Of a DNA stretch of 64,000 nucleotides, positions 4,721 to 57,050 are shown one piece after another (the first letter of the stretch is position 1; every line of letters starts with the position of its first letter). The DNA comes from Ginglymostoma cirratum. Taxonomy: Eukaryota. The DNA lies in assembly GCA_024137785.1 (NCBI GenBank), contig JAHRHZ010000133.1:25037874-25101873 (forward strand), written 5' to 3'. The notes below the pieces were generated by a model that saw nothing but the letters and a program-made list of their open reading frames with translations, was not told where the DNA came from and did not search any database. The position numbers were made by a program, and so were the translations under genes.

Positions 4721-4943
4721 GTTCGTTTAAAAACAAATACCAACACCAACTAAAATACCGAGGAAAAGACTTCCAAAAAAAAATTTATGAACTTTTTTTT
4801 CCAAGTACGGAACAACATAATCTCAGCCCATGATAAATTATATACCCAGAAAATTTGTCTTTGCCTGAATCACGCATACCCAATTAATTTCCTCAGGTAA
4901 CGTTCCACAGCTGTTCTCCCTTCCCCGATCAAACTAAAGCAAA

Positions 4944-5072
4944 GTAAAAACCGAAAGAACTGCAGATGCTGTAAATTAGGAACAAAAACAGGAGTTGTTG
5001 GAAAAGCTCAGCAGGTCTGGCGGTATCTGTGAAGAAAAAAGTCAACGTTTAGGGTCCGGTGACCACTCTTCA
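4944..5072 (-). mobile_element. Short Penelope-like element with degenerate hammerhead core and 13 bp target-site duplication
   Basis: Direct repeat AAACTAAAGCAAA at 4931-4943 and 5073-5085. Minus strand starts TTGAAGA-GTGGTCACCGGACCC-TAAAC-GTT and ends CAGCATCTGCAGTTCTTTCGG. Confidence 0.75.
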
Positions 5073-5719
5073 AAACTAAAGCAAAACTCTTAACATCACT
5101 CGCTACCTTCCATGTTGCCAACATCCTTGCTCTCCTTAGCATAACAGGGCCGTTTGTCTCAATAGTTCAGGAATCATCACCTTCCATACCACATTCAATT
5201 ATTTCCTCTTTGTATCTGCTCTGATAATCTTCAGCCCTACTAGATTCAGGAGCCGTGCTGTGTGCAGAGTTTTGCATAAGACAGGTAGGGCACATGATTA
5301 TATTTGTTTTTCGTGCATGTTCAGGTCACCAGCCTGAAGCCCGACGCTGCACTTTTAGGGCCGTCATTCTACACCAAACAACGGCACCATTTAACCAATA
5401 ATGCAGTCAATAACGCCATCTGATACTTTGGTATAAAGAACCACAGAGGGGGTAAACCCCAAGGGGCAAAACCCACGTTAAAATCAGCGATATTTTATAT
5501 ATACCACTGAGCGCAAGTTAAGAACAATAATACCATAGCCTATGTCTCAAGCTCTAGTTCTAATGCTGTTCGTACGATATTTCAATTGCTAGACTGTTTT
5601 CTTTTAAAGTGCCAACGCATTACCCTGGGGTAGCTGTATCATACATATAGCATGACCAGTGATCGAATCATTTTCGTTTGATTCATTGATCAGCCCCATA
5701 ATGTTGGCGACTCCTGCTG

Positions 5720-6408: not shown

Positions 6409-6626
6409 GAGATAGTAAGAACTGCCGATGCTGGAGTCAGAGATAACACAATGTGGAGCTGGATAACCACAGCAGGCCAGGCAGCATCAGAAGAGCAGGA
6501 AAGTTGACGGTTCGGGTCGGTACCCTTCTTCAGAAACGAGACAAACAGGAGGCTGGAAAAGCACAGCAAGCCAGGCAGCATCTGGAGGAAAGGAGAAGTC
6601 AACGTTTCGGGTATAGCCCTTAAGAG
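6409..6626 (-). mobile_element. Two adjacent short Penelope-like repeats with degenerate hammerhead cores
   Basis: 6409-6535 is the same family as 42564-42690. Its minus strand reads CTGAAGA-A-GGGTACCGACCC-GAAC-CGTCA. 6541-6626 is a related unit reading AGGGCTATACCC-GAAAC-GTT. Confidence 0.75.
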
Positions 6627-9600
6627 GTAACTTCCAGGGACCACTTCCTGTGGAGATTGAAAGACGCTAGTTTTAGCTGCACCTCTCTGCCCAGCGCCGA
6701 AACAGTTCCGCCCTGGCAGTACATGTCCAGCTCTCCACTCCCGGCCAAGTTGGCATCTACAATGTCTGAAATGGAGAAAGTGTAAGGCCAAAATCTACCC
6801 TACCTCCCTTCGGATTATTTTAACCTGTGCTAAATTCATCAAAGAGCCTTCCAAATGTCTTAATACGCTATTCGACAAACACGGCTTCAAATCAGGTTGG
6901 AGTTGTATCCTAGACTTTACCTGACTTAACGATACTCTGCGATCAGCCACACAAAGTTTCCTCCTGTTTGGACTTGTGCACAGAATTTAACTCTCGGTGG
7001 CTGTGAAGAGCATAAGTTAGCTTTATGTTGACTTGAAAAATCTTTCAATACTATGTCCCAAATTTCGCAAGAGGTTTTAGAAGAACTTAAAAATGCAGCT
7101 TTGCGTCAGGCTGGAGCTGTATCGGAGCTGGTGTGCATTGAGATTCGCGCCAGACCAATTCTGGGCGAGCCCTCGACTCTGTACCGTTTGAGACGGTGTA
7201 TACCTTCGGCGGAATAGTGGACGTTTAAGTAATCCCTCAACTGCAGTCAGGTATGGCCTGGGTTCTCACCGAGAAACGGAAACGTTGTACAGTCAATGAG
7301 CGGCGCTTTTAGCTGTGCCAAGGCTCGCCGTTTTGTAACGCTGATAGATCTACCGGGACTGACAGTTCGGTCTGACAAGTGTATGCAGGACTCAACGCTG
7401 AAAAAAAAAGAAATTGGAAACAAAATAGAGGGAAAGAAAAGCTTTGTACAGTTATCAAAATAGCGAGCAAACTGTAAAAGGGAAACAATACAGAAAATAG
7501 TGCCGATAAATTGGAATAAAATGAAAAGACAACGAACAAATTGACATTATCATATATTGAAATAGAATGAAATATGAACAGACGTTATTAATAAATAATT
7601 CGGTAGCTAGTACGTAGGTAAATATTTATATATATATTTGTGGAAGGATGTCGACTACGCGAAGAATGAAGATGTTACAGTGTGAGAGAATAATGGAAGT
7701 CTTGTATAACGTGTATTTTTTTTAAAAGTTTGTATTTTAAACAAGGAATACGTAACTTTGGTAGTCAGAACGAATTTTGGTTTAAGTTTCATCATAACTG
7801 CACTCATTTCCTAACGTTCAATGTTCGTTTTTCTGTAATTTTGAGTGAACAAACTATACCTGTGACTCCTTACGCTGCTGTTTCCAATGAAAACTGGGAC
7901 GTGTTCAGAGCTCCGTGCAGAGATAACGCTTTGCCGCTTGGTGACGCTAAAGAGGCGCAAAGCCAAGTATGAATCATCTATTGACAGAGGTCACCAGATC
8001 TTCAGTGCCCCAAGTGTTCTGCCAACAAAACCCTCAAAAATATGATGAAAGTACATTGTGATCTTCGTTTCAAGTTGTCTGATGTTAAGGTTGGGATTAC
8101 CTAGTTTTGTACTTTTTTTAACCTAACAACAGAAAATGTGGGTGGGCATTTGTCAAATATTTCCATCCATCTCTACAGTGTCTGTACTCTCCGCCTCAAA
8201 TTTACGAAAAGAATATTTCCAATTCTAAACCAGCAACAGTATTAAGTCCCAACTTTGACACCATCCGTTCTTTTTCATCAGATCGGCTAAAGAAATAAAC
8301 TAAAAGGCTTCCATATTTGATCAAATCTTTAATTTCGTGCGTTTGGTTGCGAAATGCTAGAAACTGTGTTAAAATCTGCATTTTCTAGAGGAATAGCGAG
8401 AACTGTAAGCTTGACAGCAATTGCAATAGTAATATTTATTGCGTGTGTAAATGTCGTTTACAATTTTCTAAAGTTCAGAAGTCAACTAGTTATTGGAAAT
8501 GCCAAAATAAAATCCATTCCTAACTTTAAAAGAAGATTTTGTAGCATTTGTCAGCTATCGATCCGCTTTATTCCTGTCACTTTTAACAGTTATATTGTTT
8601 GCAAAGAGCGTGGCCCATGTGCTGTTTCCCCAGTTTTCAGAGATGCCTTGTCCCTATAGAATAACAAGAGACAACTCTATTAGAGCAAAAATTAAAGAAA
8701 GCGAAGCTTTACAGTCCTATCAGAAAGTCGACCTGTCAGAAAAGTGGAATCTGATTTTTTTTTGTTGTTGCAGTGTTGTTTGGAATAGAAGCAAAATGAA
8801 AAGCCGGCTGCTCCAGACCAGGTATCTGAGCTGTCCGCGCTGCATCCACACCACCCAGAGAGAAGGGAGGTACTCCTTCCCGGAAAAAAAAACTGGGCAC
8901 ATTTACAGACAGCTCGAGTCCGTCAAAACACACAGCAGCATTGCTCCCTAGCCTGATAGCCAGCGGTTATTGTCAGAAGTGGGGCACTGTCGCCCAGCAC
9001 AAAGTGTAAGCGGACGCAGCTTCAGTAAAGAGCGTTTACAAATATCAGATTCAATATTTTCCGGCTGGCGATGCAACCTTTTCTGTTTCATTAAATGACA
9101 CGGAAGTTCTGCCCTAGTCTTGTTTCATTTATTTTTTAAATGAGTTTGTACGGACAGCAGTCGCTTACACGGTCGTTGTTACCAAAGACACAAATTGAAA
9201 ACACATTTCCCCAGTGATTCGTTTATCATCGAACACAACGCAAAGATGAACATCCCAAATACAAGAAATAGCGCAGCAAGTGCCAAGAGTCGAGGCGAGA
9301 AAAAAAAGTGCACTTTGAGTGAAATAAATACATAGCAATGTACTGTTGGCAAACTTCGAATGAATTGTTTTTACGGAACGATAGAATAAATGCAGAGCTT
9401 CTACTATTGGCAGTTGGACTGACCTAGAAATTAGATCTACATCATGCTTCTGTGTTCTTGTTGTGCTTCCGTTAATGAGACAGGCTGCGAGTTACCACCA
9501 GTGTAGGGAATGCAATTTTTTACAAAAACACAAAACACCAACAAAGAGAGAGGAGTCTTGTTTCCAGAACCCGTGGAATGTGTTCAACTGAAAAAAAGAG

Positions 9601-17600: not shown

Positions 17601-18469
17601 ATTCGGGCAGTTATCTGTGTTAAAACGCCTGCGGAATACAGAAACAAGGTCAGGGACATATTTGTAGTTTACTCCCGGAATATAATGAGGTTAAAGACGA
17701 GAGCTGCCGTTTACCGCGAGAATGGCATCCGAATCCAGTGGGCGGCTGGTTTGTTCAGGAATTCAATGCACAGAGTATGAGCGCGGCCTTCGCTTTGACG
17801 CACCCAGGCGCTTCTGCAGTTCGAGGTTAATGTTTGTAGGCAACGCGACATCCCGGCTTCACTTGGCGTGAACCTATCGAATGAATTACCCCAGGTCCAA
17901 GCAAAGCAGGAAAAGATAGGATAAATATTGACATGTTTTAAGACACCGTATCAGCAAAACAGCAAACTCACATATATGATTAAGCGCATCTCATATTTTA
18001 TAAACATATTAGTTAATAGTTAAAACTTAAGAAATGAAACAAAGGCTGATATAAAGAACCCAGGATGTACAGCACGTTTACAGGCCAGTAACACTTATCT
18101 ACAACCCAAGATTGACATCTGCTACTTCAGAGTTCCTTCCTTGTAATAAGCAGAGAACTGGTCTATATAAACAGGATTTTGTTGTATTTGGACCGAGATA
18201 AAGTAACAATCAATCTACAACTGATTGTCAACATGCCCCATCCGCCATCATGGATCCAAAATGACTGACAGCACAACAGTCAGAGCGAAAGATAGAGAGT
18301 TCACATGGAATGAACAGACTCAGGAAGACTGTGACAGGTCACGCAGGGGATGTCGGTTTGGAGTCAGCGGAAGGGTGCTCTGGAATCAGGCTCATAATGT
18401 CAACCGGCCACTCTGCAGCCCCCAGTCCCTGCCCACCACTATCCCCCCACAGCCGCCACAAATTCCCAA

Positions 18470-20345
18470 GTATTACTACTGCCCCAGCCCCTGTCGCCGG
18501 TATTTCTCCCATTCCCCGCCCCCAGCGCTTGATCCAACCCGGGCTCCTGGCCCCAATCCGAGTTCCCACCCCCCAATACCTGATCCAACCCTGCCTCCAG
18601 CCCTGACCCAACCTGGCTCCTGCTCCCAAACCCTGACCCAGTCCCAGTCCCTGGCCCAAACCTGGCTCCTGCCCCCAACCCCTGACCCAGTCCCAGTGCC
18701 TGCCTCCAGCCCCGACCAAACTGGGCTCCTGCCTCCAATTCCTGATCCACCCATCTCCCAACACCTAACCCCTGGTCCAACCCTGGCTCCCAACACCCAT
18801 CCCTGATCCAACCTCAGCTCCTGCCCCTAATCCCTGATCCGACCCTGGCTCCCATTCTCCCAACTCCTGATCAAACCCTGAGTCCTGCTCCCAACTCCTG
18901 CTCCAGACCTAGTCCCTGCCTCCAGTCCCTGACCCAAACCCTGATCCAGCCCCCAACCCCTAATACCACCCCAGCTCACAACCGCCAACCCATGATCCAA
19001 CCACAGCTCCCGCTCTCCATCCCTGATCCAACACTGGCTCCAGACCCCAAACCATCATCCAACAATGGCTCCCACCACCCCCATTCCTGATCCAACACCG
19101 GCTTCCACACCCATAACCCCTGATCCAACTCTGGCACCCACCCCCAATCCCTGATCCAACCCTAGTTCCTTTACCCAATCCCTGATCCAACATCGGCTCC
19201 CACCTCCCAACCCCTGCACTAACATCGGCTTCCATCCCCCTCCCCCACCCTGATCCAACCCCAGCTCCCAACCCCCAATCCGTCATCTAACCCCGGCTCC
19301 CACCCCACCCAATCCCTGATCCAACCCCAGCTCCTGTACCCAATCCCTGACCCATCCCCAGCTCCCACCCTTGCCCAACCCCTGACCCAACCCCACCTCC
19401 TGCCCGCCAAATCTCTGACCCAACCTTCCCCCATGTCCTGGTCCAAACACAGCTCCTGCACCCCAATCCTTGACCCAACCCCTGCTCCCACCCTTGCCCA
19501 ATCCCTGATCCAACCCCGGCTCCAAACTCCCAATCCCTGACCTAACCCCTACTCCTGTCCCCCAACCTCTGATCCAACACCGCCTGCCAAACTGAACTAC
19601 TGATCCAACCTCAGCTCCTGCCTCAAATCCCCGATCCAACCCCGGCTCCCACCCACCCAATCCCTGATCCAACACTGCCTCCCACATCCAATCCCTGATC
19701 CAACACCGCCTCCCACATGCAATCTCTGATCCAACACTGCCTCCCACATCCAACCGCTGATCTAACCCCGCCTCCTACCCCAACCCCTGATCTAACCCGG
19801 CTCCCAACCCCAACCCCTGACATAACCCCACTTCCCGCCCCCCAACCCCTAATCAAACCCCAGCTTCTGCTTCCAACCCCTGATGTAACCCCACCTCCTG
19901 CTCCCCTCCCCCCAAATCTCTGATCCAACCCCAGCTGCTACTCCCAACGCCTGATCTAAACCTGGCTCCCATCCCCCATGTCCTGGTCCAAACACAGCTC
20001 CTGCACCCCAATCCTTGATCCAATCCCGGCTACCACCCTCAATCCCTGAACCAAACCCGGCTCCTGTCCCCAACCCTGATCCAACCCCAGCTCCCGCCCC
20101 CCTCATCCCCAATCTAACACCGGCTGTTGTCCCCAACCCCGATCGAACCCTGACTCCCACATCCTCCCCCGACTCCTGATCCGACCCTGGCTCCTGCTCC
20201 CAATCCCTGATCCAATCTTGTTGCAGTCTCCTACCCCGATTCCCAACTCGAGAGCTCCCTGGCTCCTGCACCAGTCTCCCGTCAGAGCCTAGTTTCTGCC
20301 ATCCAGCCCCTTATCTAATCCTGACTCTTGCCCCCGGCTCCAGCT
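18470..20345. repeat. C-rich degenerate minisatellite, unit ~30-35 bp (core CCCTGATCCAACCCCRGCTCC)
   Basis: Dozens of imperfect tandem copies with extreme C-over-G skew on the + strand, and an identical 47 bp block at 19427-19473 and 19972-20018. Confidence 0.95.
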
Positions 20346-20784
20346 CTGCCCTGAGTCAAGTTTTCTAACACTGAGGCAGCGCAACATCAAACACAAACAC
20401 ATGAACCAGGGATTCTTGCTCTGCGTGGGCCTGGGAGATGTGTTTGGGGTGGAATTACAAGGGTGCGTGTGGAGGGATGGGAGGCAGGAGAGGTGCGGTG
20501 TGGGGGCGGGATGGGGGGGGTGAGGGGAATGCAGGGGCTTCTCTCACTGTCAACCCTTGACTGCAGCCACTCACAACGCATCCGAACTGGGGACTGGAGC
20601 CTGGGACCCCGAGAAAATAGTTCTGCTCCTCTTCCTCCTCCTCCTCCTGGAGTTCAATTCCCGGCCTGCGTTAAATTTAAAAAAAAGAGATGGAGAGACA
20701 ACAAAATGACAATAAGAGAAAATCCACAAACTTTTCAAAATAATAGAATGGAAGCGTGCTGAGAAAAGCAACCACCATCCGGAG

Positions 20785-20838
20785 GAGATAGTAGGAACTG
20801 CAGATGCTGGAGTGGCCTGCTGTGTTCACCCAGCTCTA
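20785..20838. mobile_element. 54 bp internally inverted Penelope-like insertion with 12 bp TSD
   Basis: GAGATAGTAGGAACTGCAGATGCTGGAG joined to TGGCCTGCTGTGTTCACCCAGCTCTA, the opposite orientation of the same family. Flanked by CACCATCCGGAG (20773-20784) and CACCACCCGGAG (20839-20850). Confidence 0.8.
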
Positions 20839-20999
20839 CACCACCCGGAGCATTTGGTTGGGTGGGGGTGGGGTGGGGGGAGGTGAGGTAAGGAGTGAGT
20901 GCAGAGTGGAATGGGAAGTGGAGGTTTGTGTGTGGAGTGTTGGGGGAGGGGGGGGGTGATTGGAGGGTGCTGCTTGGGACGGGGTTGGGGGGGTTGGGG

Positions 21000-21373
21000 T
21001 GGCGGTGACGCGGCTTTGACCTCTTTCCACGCCCTGGCGCTGTAGTGTTCCGCCAGCAGGAGGAGGAGGAGGAGGCGGAGAGGGGGCGCGGCGCTGATTG
21101 GCTGCGGCGCGGGGCGACGCGCAGGCGCGCCGGCGGCTGTGATTGGGCAGCCAGGGGCCGGGCTCCATGGGCGCGGAGCTGCCTGGCTCCGAGCGACCTC
21201 TTCTTAAGAACATGAAGTAGTGGCTCTTTTTTTTTACTACACGGAGTTGCCAACGTTTGTGCGATTTGCGGTCCAACTGTGCTGCGGCGATCACAATTTA
21301 TTTTTTTTATTATTATTATATTTTTTTCTCGGGATTTTTTTCGGGAAAAAAATCCCCCGTGTGTGTGTGTGTG
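21000..21373 (+). promoter_or_regulatory. FOXG1 CpG-island promoter and 5'UTR
   Basis: High GC/CpG, a (GGA)n tract and two reverse CCAAT boxes (ATTGG at 21097-21101 and 21142-21146, each in a TGATTGG context) directly upstream of the ATG. The TSS cannot be determined from sequence. Confidence 0.75.
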
Positions 21374-22603
21374 ATGTTGGACATGGGAGATAAGAAAGAA
21401 GTGAAGATGATCCCCAAGTCTTCGTTCAGCATAAACAGCCTGGTGCCCGAAGCGGTGCAGAGTGACAGCCGCCAGCGCGCTGGCCCCGAGCACGATGACA
21501 AGCCATGCTTGCCAGCTCTCGACACCAAGCCGGAGAACGCCGGCGGCAAAAGCGAGAGCAGCTCGTCGGATCCAGTCGGCTCGGACGACAAGGACAAGCC
21601 CGAGGAGAAGAAGGCCGACGGCAAGGAGGCAGACGCCGGCAAGGAGGGCGAGAAGAAGAACGGCAAGTACGAGAAGCCCCCGTTCAGCTACAACGCCCTG
21701 ATCATGATGGCCATCCGTCAGAGCCCCGAGAAGCGGCTCACCCTCAACGGCATCTACGAGTTCATCATGAAGAACTTCCCGTATTACCGGGAGAACAAGC
21801 AGGGCTGGCAGAACTCCATCCGACACAACCTCAGCCTGAACAAGTGCTTCGTCAAGGTGCCGAGGCATTACGACGACCCTGGGAAGGGCAATTACTGGAT
21901 GCTGGACCCATCGAGCGATGATGTCTTTATAGGCGGCACCACGGGCAAGCTCCGCCGGAGATCCACCACCTCTCGGGCCAAGTTAGCCTTCAAGCGGGGA
22001 GCGCGCCTCACCTCCACCGGCCTGACATTCATGGACAGGGCAGGTTCCTTATACTGGCCGGTTTCGCCATTCCTGTCCCTCCATCATCCCCGAGCCAGCA
22101 GTACCTTGAGTTATAATGGAACCACCTCACCTTATCCCAGCCACCCGATGTCCTACAGCTCGGTGTTAACTCAGAACTCTCTGGCAAACAACCACTCCTT
22201 TCCAACTTCAAATGGCTTAAGTGTAGATAGACTTGTGAACGGAGAAATTCCTTACGCCACCCACCACCTAACGGCTGCAGCCGCCTTGGCTGCCTCGGTG
22301 CCGTGCGGTTTGTCTGTTCCATGCTCCGGCACGTATTCGTTAAACCCCTGCTCGGTAAACCTTCTGGCAGGACAGACGAGTTACTTTTTCCCCCATGTTC
22401 CTCATCCTTCAATGACTTCTCAAAGCAGCACTTCAATGACGGCTAGGACAGCGTCGTCCACGTCTCCACAGGCGCCTTCAACTCTCCCCTGTGAATCTCT
22501 AAGACCTTCTTTGCCAAGTTTCTCCACAGGACTTTCTGGAGGACTTTCTGACTACTTCACACATCAAAACCAGGGGCCCTCTTCAAACCCTCTAATACAC
22601 TAA
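21374..22603 (+). CDS. FOXG1: Forkhead box protein G1 (BF-1), single coding exon, 409 aa
   Basis: Starts [24 protein letters not shown] (eh1-like motif, Ser19). Forkhead domain [31 protein letters not shown]...[10 protein letters not shown] starts at 21674, followed by RRRSTT, YWPxSPF and C-terminus SSNPLIH, all near-identical to vertebrate FOXG1. Confidence 0.99.
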
Positions 22604-40500: not shown

Positions 40501-42563
40501 TTTGAATCCAATATTATTAATATTTTTTTCATTTAAACCCACTGAGCCTTGGAGAACTCAGATCTTATAAAAGTTCATGTTATTTCTGAAAGTTTCTAAA
40601 AGTTTAAAGCATTATACCTGATTTATATTAAATATCAAAACAAACGAGTTTAGCTTATATGTAGACGTTTGAACAATTCAGTTGTATTCACTCTGTTGGC
40701 CATTAAAACATTGACATTGACATTAGAGTATTGTATTGTAACAAAAATAAATCATATTACAATAAATTTAAATTTGCAATAGAATTTGGACTGTTTACAT
40801 TTTTGGTAATATTTCATTAATAGCTTAATATCTTGTGATTATTATTTGGGATAATTAATACATGTGAAAAAATATCAACTAAAACTTCTCCTTTAGCACT
40901 TCATCGCTGCTAAGTAACAGTGAATGAGTCCATATTTGTTTTTGTCAACACTGTTAGATTTATACAAAATAAATGTTTAAGTTTGATACTTGTGTATAAT
41001 GCTGGATCTATTTTTAACAGTTTTTTTTGTTAAGCTGGTAGGGAGGGTGGTGCAGTGGCATTAAGATAATACTGTAAATGTTTATAAACAGACTGTACTC
41101 TGATTTGTAGCAAGCAGAGACAGAAACATTCATTCTCTGAAGCTCATCTCCATGCTTATTAGGTATAAATATGGTAGAAACCTCTTAAATATGGTAAGTT
41201 ATAGAATTAAATGAATTGTTAGCCTTATGAAAATTCAATATATGCAATCTGACAAATGCAGGAAGGCAATGTCCGTTGACCCATGGTCTACATTAAATAT
41301 AAAATAAAGTTGTTCATCCTGTGTGTATTGTTCATTGTTTCAAAGAAAGAGAGATGGAAAGTGAGGCTATCAGAAATGAGAACATTTATATGTGAGACAA
41401 CTTTCAATCTCGGAAGAACAACTAGAATTGGAGCAGAAAACTGAAGACAATACTAACAGTCATATTTTAAGATTTCATGGATTGGTTATGTTACTGGACT
41501 TTAGTTATTTATAATGGGTGCCACCATTAAAAATGCAGTGCAATAATTGTTTAAATTTGCAGCCTTGCAGGTAAGTATTCTTTTGTGGGACCTTTGCTGA
41601 ATTAGACTTTAAATAAATATCAATATGCACCAGTTGCTTATTAGAGTTAATGAGAAAAGTGTCTCTTTTTTCGTCTCACTGTTACAGATTTGATGTGCCA
41701 CCTTACAGAGTTAATGTGTGATGCAAAATATGCAATTCTTTTAATTATATTGACAATCTGCAACACATTGCTTTCCAATATATTTTCTTTAACTCCCAAT
41801 AAGTTCAGTTTCTCTCCAACTTGCAAAACATTTAGAAGTAGTCACAATATTTTTGGAAGAACCTATATCTCTGAAGTTTGAAAGGTAAAAAAAAAATTGG
41901 AAGAGGGAGCAAGGAATATTAAAACCAAGACATGTATACCCATATACACCAGCACTGGAAAGCTAGCTATATATATGTTCATTCAATAAAATTATAAATG
42001 GTTCATGCTGTCCAGTACAATTCCAGTCATCAAAACTGTACTTATAATGACCTCTTGTTAAAACAACATAGGGGCACAATCTGATATACTGTCAATTTTT
42101 GTGATTACTCTTTGCTGGTGTGTAATATTCTTTAATCATATGACAGGGGTGAGAGTTTTATCATTAATCGTAAATAAAGTGGCATTCTCAGAGGGAGAAA
42201 AGATAGAGCAAATGGTGAATGGATGTTCAATGTTATGAATGAACAATGAATGTTACTGCTGGAAATATATGTGGAATGCTGAATGCTGGAGTGTATTATA
42301 TGGAAAACACTGAGCTCTGCAGCAGCCCAGCGCAGTACTGGTTGAACAATTCAATGTGGGACTTGCAAGGCTGATGAAGTGGCAGAGTTAGTGATTGAAA
42401 TGCAGGGAGATATTTGAAGCAGTTAGGCTGGGAAAAGAGAACATTGATTATAAATGAACAGGTGGGTGAAGCAGCTGGAATGTAAGGCAGAGGAGAAAAC
42501 AAGCAACATAGCAAATGTAGGGTGAAAATAACTGCATAGCAGACACAAAAGATGAGAAAAGAT

Positions 42564-42781
42564 GAGATAGTAGGAACTTCCGATGCTGGAGAATCTGGGA
42601 TAACAAAGTGTAGAGCTGGATGAACACAGCAGGCCAAGCAGCATCAGAGGAGCAGGAAAGCTGATGTTTCGGGTCGAGACCCTTCTTCAGAAGAAGAATC
42701 TCGACCTGAAACGTCAGCTTTCCTGCTTCTCTGATGTTGCTTGGCCTGCTGTGTTCATCCAGCTCTACATCTTGTTGTCTT
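42564..42781. mobile_element. Palindromic (fold-back) Penelope-like insertion with 13 bp TSD and two defective hammerhead cores
   Basis: ~90 bp inverted arms 42599-42688 and 42690-42779 around a single central base. Direct repeat AGAAAAGATGAGA at 42555-42567 and 42782-42794. Confidence 0.9.
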
Positions 42782-42964
42782 AGAAAAGATGAGACGTTAA
42801 GATGAAGTAATATATAAATATATTATATATAATATATATATAAGTAATATATAAAAGACACTTTTAGCCAATGGGCTGGAATTAATTTTTGTTGAGGTGT
42901 GTGTGTGGAGTTATTAACTAGGTTGAATCAAGCAAGTTACTATCTTTCAGACATGTGATATGAG

Positions 42965-45033: not shown

Positions 45034-46096
45034 GGATGGAAAATTCTGGACCATTCTCGTCCATTCCGTCCATTCTGGACGGAAAATATTCAACATGGTG
45101 CTCAGTTACGAGTGGTGTACCACGAGGATCTGTTCTGGGTCCTCTTCTATTTGTGATTTTTGTAAATGATTTGGATGATTAGCAAGTTTGCAGACGATAT
45201 GAAAGTGGGTCACGTTGTGAACAGTGCAGAGGGCTGTTCTAGGTTACAAAGGGACATTGATAGAATGCAGAGCTGGACTGAGAAGTGGCAGATGGAGTTT
45301 AACCCTGAAAAGTGTGAGGTGATTCATTTTGGAAGGACAAACTTGAAAGCAGAATATAGGGTTAACGGAAAGATTCTTGGCAATGTGGAGGAGCAGAGGG
45401 ATCTTGGGGTTCATGTTCACAGTTCCCTGAAAGCTGCCACCCAGGTGGATAGAGTTGTTAAGAAGGCGTATGGTGTGTTAGCTTTCATTAATAGAAGGAT
45501 TGAGTTCAAGAGCCGTGAAGTTATGCTCCAGCTCTCCAAAAGCCTGGTTTGGCCACATCTGGAGTATTGTGTCCAGTTCTGGTCACCTCATTACAGGAAA
45601 GATGTGGAAGCGTTGGAAAGGGTGCAGAGGAGATTTACCAGGATGTTGCCTGGAATGGAGGGAAGGTGTTACGAGGAAAGGTTGCGAGAGCTAGGGCTTT
45701 TCTCTTTAGAACGACGAAGGATGAGAGGTGACTTGATAGAGGTGTACAAAATGATCAGAGGTATAGATAGAGTAGACAGCCAGAGACTTTTTCCTAGGGT
45801 GGAGGTAGCTTTTACGAGGGGACATAGTTTTAAAGTGAAAGGAGTTAGATATTGGGGAGACGTCAGAGGTAGGTTCTTCACTCAGAGAGTGGTCAGGGCG
45901 TGGAATGCATTGCGGAGAGGGTAGTGGAGTTGGCCTCATTAGGGGCATTTAAGCGGCTATTAGATAGGCATATGGATGATAGTATAAGGTAGGGATGGAG
46001 GTTAGATAGACCTTAGGTTTCGGACAAAAGTTCAGCATAACATCGTGGGCCGAAGGGCCTGTTCTGTGCTGTACTGTTCTATGTTCTATGTTCTAT
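45034..46096 (+). mobile_element. Young 5'-truncated CR1 (HER1-like) LINE, RT C-terminal half plus 3'UTR
   Basis: ORF 45166-45924 with ISKFADD, WQMEFNPEKCEVIHFG, HLEYCVQFWSP, LERVQRRFTRM and FFTQRVV..WN.L. (TTCTATG)n tail and possible ATAAT TSD at 45029-45033 and 46095-46099. Confidence 0.95.
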
Positions 46097-51064: not shown

Positions 51065-51645
51065 CATAAAACCTGGATGCTAAAAAGGTTCTGGGGCCCT
51101 GTGTTCCAGAACTAGCTATGCACCAATCCAAGCTGTTCCAATACATCCACAACAGTGGTATCTACTTGGAAATGTGGAAATTTGCCCAGTTATGGCTGTA
51201 TACAAAAAGCAGGACAAATTTAACCCAGTCAATTACTGCACTATCATTCTACATTTGGTGATCAATAAAATGATGCAAGGGTCATGAACAGTACTATCAA
51301 ACAGCATTTGTTAAGTAAAATCTGATGCTTAATTTGGGTTCTGTCAGGTCTACCCAGCTCCCGACCACATTACAATCATAGTTTAAACATGGACAAAAGA
51401 GCTGAATTCCAAAGGTAAACTCAGAGTGACAGCCCTTGACATGCTGGAACTGCCTCCCTAACTGTATTGTGGTGTACTTACAATAAATGGACTACAATAA
51501 TTTAAGAAGGCAGCTCACCACCAGAATGATAGTACAGTAATTGACTGGGTTGAATTTGTCCTGCTTTTCTCAAAGGTAATTGGAGGTGGACAATAAATCC
51601 TCGCCCAGCCAGAGAAGGCCACATCCCCAAATGACTAAAATAAAG
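51065..51645 (+). mobile_element. Old CR1/L2-group LINE, right part with 3' tail
   Basis: WKFAQ...YKKQDKFNPVNY and ALD motifs, AAHHH-type end, and tail ggacaataaat...cacatcccc. Confidence 0.65.
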
Positions 51646-56954: not shown

Positions 56955-57050
56955 TTTGAAACGGTCACCAGACACAAAACATTAACTCTGATTTCTCTTC
57001 ACAGATGCTGCCAGACGTGCTGAGCTTTTCCAGCAACTTCTGTTTTTTGT
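56955..57050 (+). mobile_element. Decayed short Penelope-like repeat (family of 4944-5072)
   Basis: ggtcaccagacacaaaacattaactctgatttctcttcacagatgctgccagacgtgctgagcttttccagcaacttctg is the reverse-complement equivalent of 4985-5065. Confidence 0.7.

Follow-up and report, generated by a model that had tools for sequence, protein, structure and literature searches.

A probable Penelope-like fold-back insertion centred on a damaged hammerhead motif

The window analyzed here, i.e. the whole stretch of 64,000 nucleotides, contains a forkhead gene, a long hairpin flanked by a short direct repeat, and several relatives of the repeat from which the hairpin is built. The corresponding elements are listed below.

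21221-22603: forkhead gene, identified with Pfam, about 20 kb from the hairpin
42555..42567 (+): left copy of the target duplication, 13 bp, its last 4 bases being the family's terminal 4 bases
42564..42598 (-): one-sided tail of about 35 nt, lying between the family's two 3' ends
42599..42692 (-): left arm, an element 3' end piece with hammerhead motif
42686..42692: inversion axis, a TTC-A-GAA quasi-palindrome, whose 1-nt centre at 42689 is U4 of the core
42690..42781 (+): right arm, a tail-less end piece beginning at G5
42782..42794 (+): right copy of the target duplication, 13 bp, originally possibly 16 bp, from 42779
6409-6640 (-): partial tandem (two ends at 6409-6621) of two hammerhead-bearing ends from different subfamilies
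4944-5072, within 4931-5085: single arm with tail, of another subfamily, with an exact 13-bp duplication
56956-57049 (+): old tail-less arm of a second subfamily, starting near the core's 5' edge
20785-20843, in the region 20771-20850: tiny fold-back of the same family, a 28-nt tail piece (-) and a 31-nt internal piece (+)

The forkhead gene, which we take to be FoxG1, lies downstream of a repetitive C-rich and GC-rich tract (18200-20400), and the tiny fold-back at 20771-20850 is located about 450 bases upstream of the first ATG of its open reading frame. Two other sequences of the window were noted. A 252-aa frame at 45166-45924 (+) gives a weak match to reverse transcriptase; it belongs to an element separate from the hairpin and is presumably LINE-like. 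At 51205-51568, 46-bp inverted arms that are 96% complementary and lie 272 bases apart possibly represent a small DNA transposon.

The arms of the hairpin, 42599-42688 and 42690-42779, are reverse-complementary at 81 of 90 bases (90%) around a single base, A42689, and all nine differences are transitions. The preliminary description of this DNA had rightly reported the 1-nt centre, and its term "near-perfect" was too generous. The exact 13-bp direct repeat that it placed around the arms was found again (42555-42567 and 42782-42794, with a chance of about 9e-8 per position). The insert enclosed by the two copies is 214 bp long (42568-42781) and not the 181 bp first given, a figure that omitted the diagnostic feature, the one-sided tail: read on the minus strand, the left arm is 31 bases longer than the right arm before the duplication starts, and this extension (42568-42598) was assigned to the element itself. 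At the axis, three bases are compatible with either arm. The next-longest hairpin with a short spacer in the 64 kb has 15 bp, compared to 95 bp at this locus; the predicted RNA fold reaches -167.9 kcal/mol (z -20.8), and none of 200 shuffled sequences folded equally well. The effects through double-stranded RNA or cruciform extrusion suggested earlier are possible but hypothetical, the arms having 10% mismatch and pairing perfectly over only 7 bp beside the axis. The left duplication is overlapped in the source organism by a 10-bp tandem slip (42545-42567). In organisms B and C the left flank seems, in the rows listed, which give one of the three inserted letters, to end with three extra bases that match the right side, so that the target duplication may originally have been 16 bp long, the local slippage following in the source lineage.

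To place the insert among its relatives, we considered a profile built from six pieces of the window, which gave seven matches in it, six of them the training pieces themselves. The tail is also present, by sequence comparison, at 6409-6440 and 20785-20812. In the partial tandem at 6409-6640 the upstream end stops at the internal site, and the downstream end, to which the tail belongs, begins 3 bases ahead of C3. The arm at 4944-5072 has its 5' end at U4 of the core. The fold-back at 20785-20843 has non-overlapping arms and a duplication of about 12 bp with one mismatch. No clear duplication was found around the copies at 6.4-6.6 kb or 57 kb. Gene model P0006 corresponds to a further fold-back with about 14 more bases at its axis, provided that the model has no intron there. 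The point of inversion thus varies among copies: 20812, that of P0006, and 42628-42660 in the read data.

These read data come from four of the 17 listed sequencing runs, covering three related organisms, which were compared with the reference 42240-42692 (left flank and left arm). Contigs matching the arm and its flank numbered 10156, 65155, 60406 and 145057 in the four runs. Loose ends before 42564 and before 42599 numbered, in the same order, 139 and 202, 552 and 1131, 517 and 1016, and 1542 and 3931; these were the strongest in all four runs among the loose ends listed. The internal 3' site at 42599 therefore outnumbers the tail site at 42564 by 1.5 to 2.5 fold, as counts and not as frequencies, since hairpins interrupt the contigs and saturation affected three of the runs. 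The flanks of the loose ends are A-rich and heterogeneous (agreement 0.39-0.43). This clustering indicates that copies of the family end at either of two 3' sites separated by 35 nt. The insert carries one of them on each side, its arms ending exactly at 42564 and 42599. The 15 best of 102 joints, counts likewise not to be read as frequencies, comprise seven inversions from 42628-42660 to 42691/2, two tandem steps of 92-94 nt and six end-to-end joints. Joints from 42563-42565 to 42599-42613, in which the tail end faces the internal end on opposite strands, were also observed, with as many as 26 contigs in a single run; such face-to-face joints are not a product of simple twin priming. Contig record 2 of X1 was considered as a possible right arm and dropped, 14 mismatches being expected and 12 reported.

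The architecture of the insert and of its relatives makes the repeat likely to be an endonuclease-bearing Penelope-like element (PLE), the formal assignment and the enzyme both being deduced from this architecture. A tail of 30-40 nt between two 3' ends is present on one side of the insert, on the left arm only; inverted and partially tandem 5'-truncated copies are found at the locus itself, at 20785-20843, in the tandem 6409-6621 and among the read joints; a hammerhead motif lies in the terminal repeat; and the insertions have AT-rich targets, target duplications (13 bp here and at 4931/5073) and no poly(A) tail. The Penelope-like origin proposed in the preliminary description is thus supported by architecture and by the two-site 3' ends. 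No open reading frame with a PLE reverse transcriptase or GIY-YIG domain was tied to the family within the 64-kb window, as expected for a 214-bp fragment. Protein searches covered two frames, the third having a stop. One frame from the element end gave no PLE reverse transcriptase (none of 20 candidates), three matching proteins from unrelated repeats being rejected as chance; in the other, four of seven candidates were retained, all of them gene-model fragments without Pfam domains and none a reverse transcriptase. Scans for the exact DNA motif gave 0 and 0 in metagenomes, 0 in prokaryote genomes and 0 in viral contigs.

Such a structure is not new for these elements. The accessible text of PMC8557442, PMC3846280 and PMC2377424 presents an inverted 5'-truncated copy with a tail of 30-40 bp on one side as characteristic of PLE insertions, and that of PMC4209133, whose supplementary file 2, as accessible, has no shark entry, reports opposite-strand pairs of minimal hammerheads in PLEs. 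The fold-back architecture is therefore already known for PLEs, and the locus at 42555-42794 is most likely another example. With the endonuclease-bearing elements of these sources (Penelope/Poseidon, Neptune, Nematis) it shares the head-to-head inversion, the palindromic junction, the one-sided 30-40-nt tail and the target duplication; it differs in its very short arms, which hold only the last 92-125 nt, with no open reading frame and no linked reverse transcriptase. Rotifer PLEs, in the sections of PMC3846280 available, also show head-to-head inversions and palindromic junctions, with duplications of 8-10 bp compared to 13 (perhaps 16) bp here. Animal non-LTR retrozymes (10.64898/2026.07.22.740005, available in part) are likewise short non-coding PLE-end sequences with a hammerhead; they form head-to-tail tandem arrays, whereas the present locus has one unit of two inverted arms, flanked by a target duplication.

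The hammerhead motif is described here with the usual numbering of its positions. In the left arm C3 is at 42690, helix II (42682-42671) is intact, GAAA occupies 42670-42667 and cleavage would fall after 42663; a G-to-A change of CpG type at 42665, where the family carries C on the plus strand at 78% depth in X1, breaks the helix III palindrome. The right arm retains GAAA-C-GUC, with would-be cleavage after 42715, and its helix II is broken by changes at 42697, 42698 and 42707. The core bases C3-A9, G12-A15.1, U16.1 and H17 are complete in the left arm, and the right arm is without its own C3-U4. The earlier readings of both motifs hold as written, except that the "CA" of CAGAAGA belongs to the other strand of the left arm; the right arm hence starts at G5 (42690), and there is a single CUGAAGA box. 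As previously claimed, the two arms have different defects: helix II with G10.1-C11.1 is found in the left arm only, and the palindromic 15.2-16.2 pair for a dimer helix III in the right arm only. Helix II is presumably better drawn with 4 bp and a 4-nt loop than with 5 bp and 2 nt. Combining the arms restores the core and helix II, but the intact ribozyme proposed earlier is not supported: helix I has at most 2 bp (U-A, U-G), below the 3-bp minimum, since the element's sequence ahead of C3 has been lost and the other arm stands in place of that strand. Minimal type I hammerheads, in the parts of PMC4209133 available, share with both arms combined the CUGAAGA box, the extra base after A9, G10.1-C11.1, GAAA, the palindromic CG and GUC; they differ by a helix I of 3-6 bp, the present motif having also damaged arms and a buried core.

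In the predicted folds, those of short fragments included, the CUGAAGA box is paired to the other arm, and in any transcript the core would sit buried inside the 90-bp hairpin. With damaged arms, a 2-bp helix I and a core paired with the other arm, the locus is predicted to be inactive, i.e. its ribozyme would neither fold nor cut. The motif was not recovered with the covariance models of Rfam: no hammerhead appeared among 16 matches up to E 10 in 42400-42950, and no match reached the gathering score in the whole window. Matches to microRNA precursors, below gathering scores, reflect the hairpin only and were rejected. The parent family nevertheless probably carried a hammerhead of the dimer type, of the kind treated in the accessible portion of PMC6765202.

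We consider it probable that the insert consists of two 3'-end pieces, both 5'-truncated, of a PLE repeat with very high copy number, joined head to head by twin priming in one insertion. In LINE-1 twin priming, both ends of the target start synthesis on the same RNA and are joined by microhomology, which yields an inversion; the present case differs in having a second start at a constant position, 35 nt in, and arms that overlap by 90 nt, an overlap for which strand displacement or a second RNA is needed. In an A-rich target, the PLE endonuclease would place its nicks in the two strands at a distance of 13-16 bp. Reverse transcription primed by the top-strand end would begin at the distal start and so produce the tail; primed by the bottom-strand end, it would begin at the internal start, which lies 35 nt upstream. 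After about 90-125 nt, synthesis of both cDNAs would end where the hammerhead core has its 5' edge, and the two would be joined by annealing through the TTC/GAA quasi-palindrome. Both pieces, which do end at about the same template position as had been proposed, likely stem from two primings during a single insertion. In the fold-back at 20785-20843 the tail arm stops before the internal start, and its non-overlapping arms are the pattern expected of twin priming without strand displacement.

The anole Poseidon element (PAc of Anolis carolinensis) offers the closest biochemical comparison in the accessible text of PMC11167929. In vitro, nicking and extension take place on both target strands, and two reverse transcription starts bound the tail, as proposed here; AT-rich targets are also common to both. 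Hammerhead mutants still insert, cleavage being dispensable. The hammerhead lies about 85-120 nt upstream of the starts in our repeat, and the PAc start lies 111-118 nt from helix II, where PAc has an ATG that the 42555-42794 insert lacks. Here the target and the template share 4 bases at the tail end, and at the internal end they agree in 5 of 6; such primer-template homology was not found in vitro, and this difference is an argument against twin priming.

A second argument against it is that a single snapped-back cDNA gives an identical junction. One tail-primed cDNA of the same PLE origin would have stopped at the core, folded back through a 2-bp stem and a 3-nt loop, which yields exactly the junction with a 1-nt centre, and copied itself, the second arm then being either cut at the internal site or joined there. 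The available sections of PMC3846280 prefer self-priming as the explanation of palindromic PLE junctions. This course of events leaves unexplained, however, that the second arm ends at the main family 3' site, 42599, and it can produce neither the non-overlapping fold-back at 20785-20843 nor the asymmetric inversions from 42628-42660 to 42692; we regard it as unlikely. Still less probable is that the hairpin was mobilised whole, having been copied from a non-autonomous fold-back master of MITE-like or retrozyme-like kind that was amplified. The clustering of 5' ends at the 5' boundary of the core, the partial tandems of 92-94 nt and the derivation of animal retrozymes from PLE ends (10.64898/2026.07.22.740005, in the part available) would fit such a master, but no second copy of the hairpin shape exists within the 64-kb window, the axes differ between copies as described above, and the axis 42688/9 is absent from the best-supported 15 of 102 joints, a count in which copies sharing one axis may be too few owing to breakage of contigs in hairpins.

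Comparison with the relatives bears on the age of the insertion. In organism B a 20878-nt contig (two runs) shows 16 differences over 42240-42588, and in organism C a 9147-nt contig shows 32 differences over 42240-42590, i.e. flank divergences of 4.6% and 9.1%. Both contigs pass from unique flank 21-23 bases into the tail, which is less than the 31-base bridging rule, so that the evidence for a filled site in both is strong but not formal. The preliminary description had proposed to look for the empty site in related sharks; the left junction appears to be filled in B and C, and the insert is accordingly old and not an artefact of assembly. An arm divergence of 10% would fit an insertion shortly before the split from organism C. 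The copy has likely decayed neutrally since then: six of the nine arm differences leave a wobble pair on the plus strand, with no bias (p 0.51), and against the family two differences fall in the left arm and seven in the right (p 0.18). These figures also bear on the idea that the hairpin was retained as a functional double-stranded RNA or regulatory element downstream of the forkhead gene. Its very stable fold, its position about 20 kb from that gene and the presence of the left junction in three related organisms agree with this, but the arms have diverged at least as much as the flank has from organism C, with no compensatory changes, no significant wobble bias and two adjacent changes beside the axis, and we find retention for a function very improbable. 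That the hairpin arose in assembly is hardly credible: inverted PLE structures do trouble assemblies (PMC8557442, in the text available) and the read comparison covered the left flank and left arm, but nine arm differences, all transitions, the exact target duplication, a contig spanning 42240-42623 with 0 differences (possibly from the source sample) and the left junction in relatives all speak against it. The hairpin is real and old, and most likely a dead PLE fold-back insertion of known pattern.

A last observation concerns the 5' ends. For five of the seven profile matches the start is no more than about 3 bases away from C3-G5, namely for both arms and for those at 6535, 5072 and about 56956; of the others, the one at 6621 has an ambiguous start and one starts about 50 nt downstream. 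In all four gene-model matches the sequence before the core differs, and among the loose ends listed those at 42685-42690 rank first on the 5' side in three of four runs. The numbers are small, the queries start at the core and the reference ends at 42692. This cluster coincides with the 5' edge of the core; the hammerhead cleavage site is 27 nt downstream of it. A 3' splice site before the core was rejected as its cause, pyrimidine-CAG being present in the loose-end consensus of organism B and not in that of C. Plain T/A microhomology with A-rich targets is a possible cause. A rather unlikely reading is that in this family the hammerhead sets the 5' ends of insertions without cutting: reverse transcriptase would pass the cleavage site and stop 27 nt further on, the fold or a protein complex acting as terminator, which would yield a standard non-autonomous unit of about 130 nt, with the TTC-N-GAA of the CUGAAGA box programming the fold-back joining. 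No description of this clustering was found in the literature searched, though it may be in print. As one old dead insertion among tens of thousands, the single locus has little weight by itself; it is a clean record of PLE integration in which both priming sites, the primer-template matches and the joint are all readable. Should 5' ends prove to accumulate in this way across the whole genome, this would be relevant to what PLE hammerheads do, with thousands of natural test cases.
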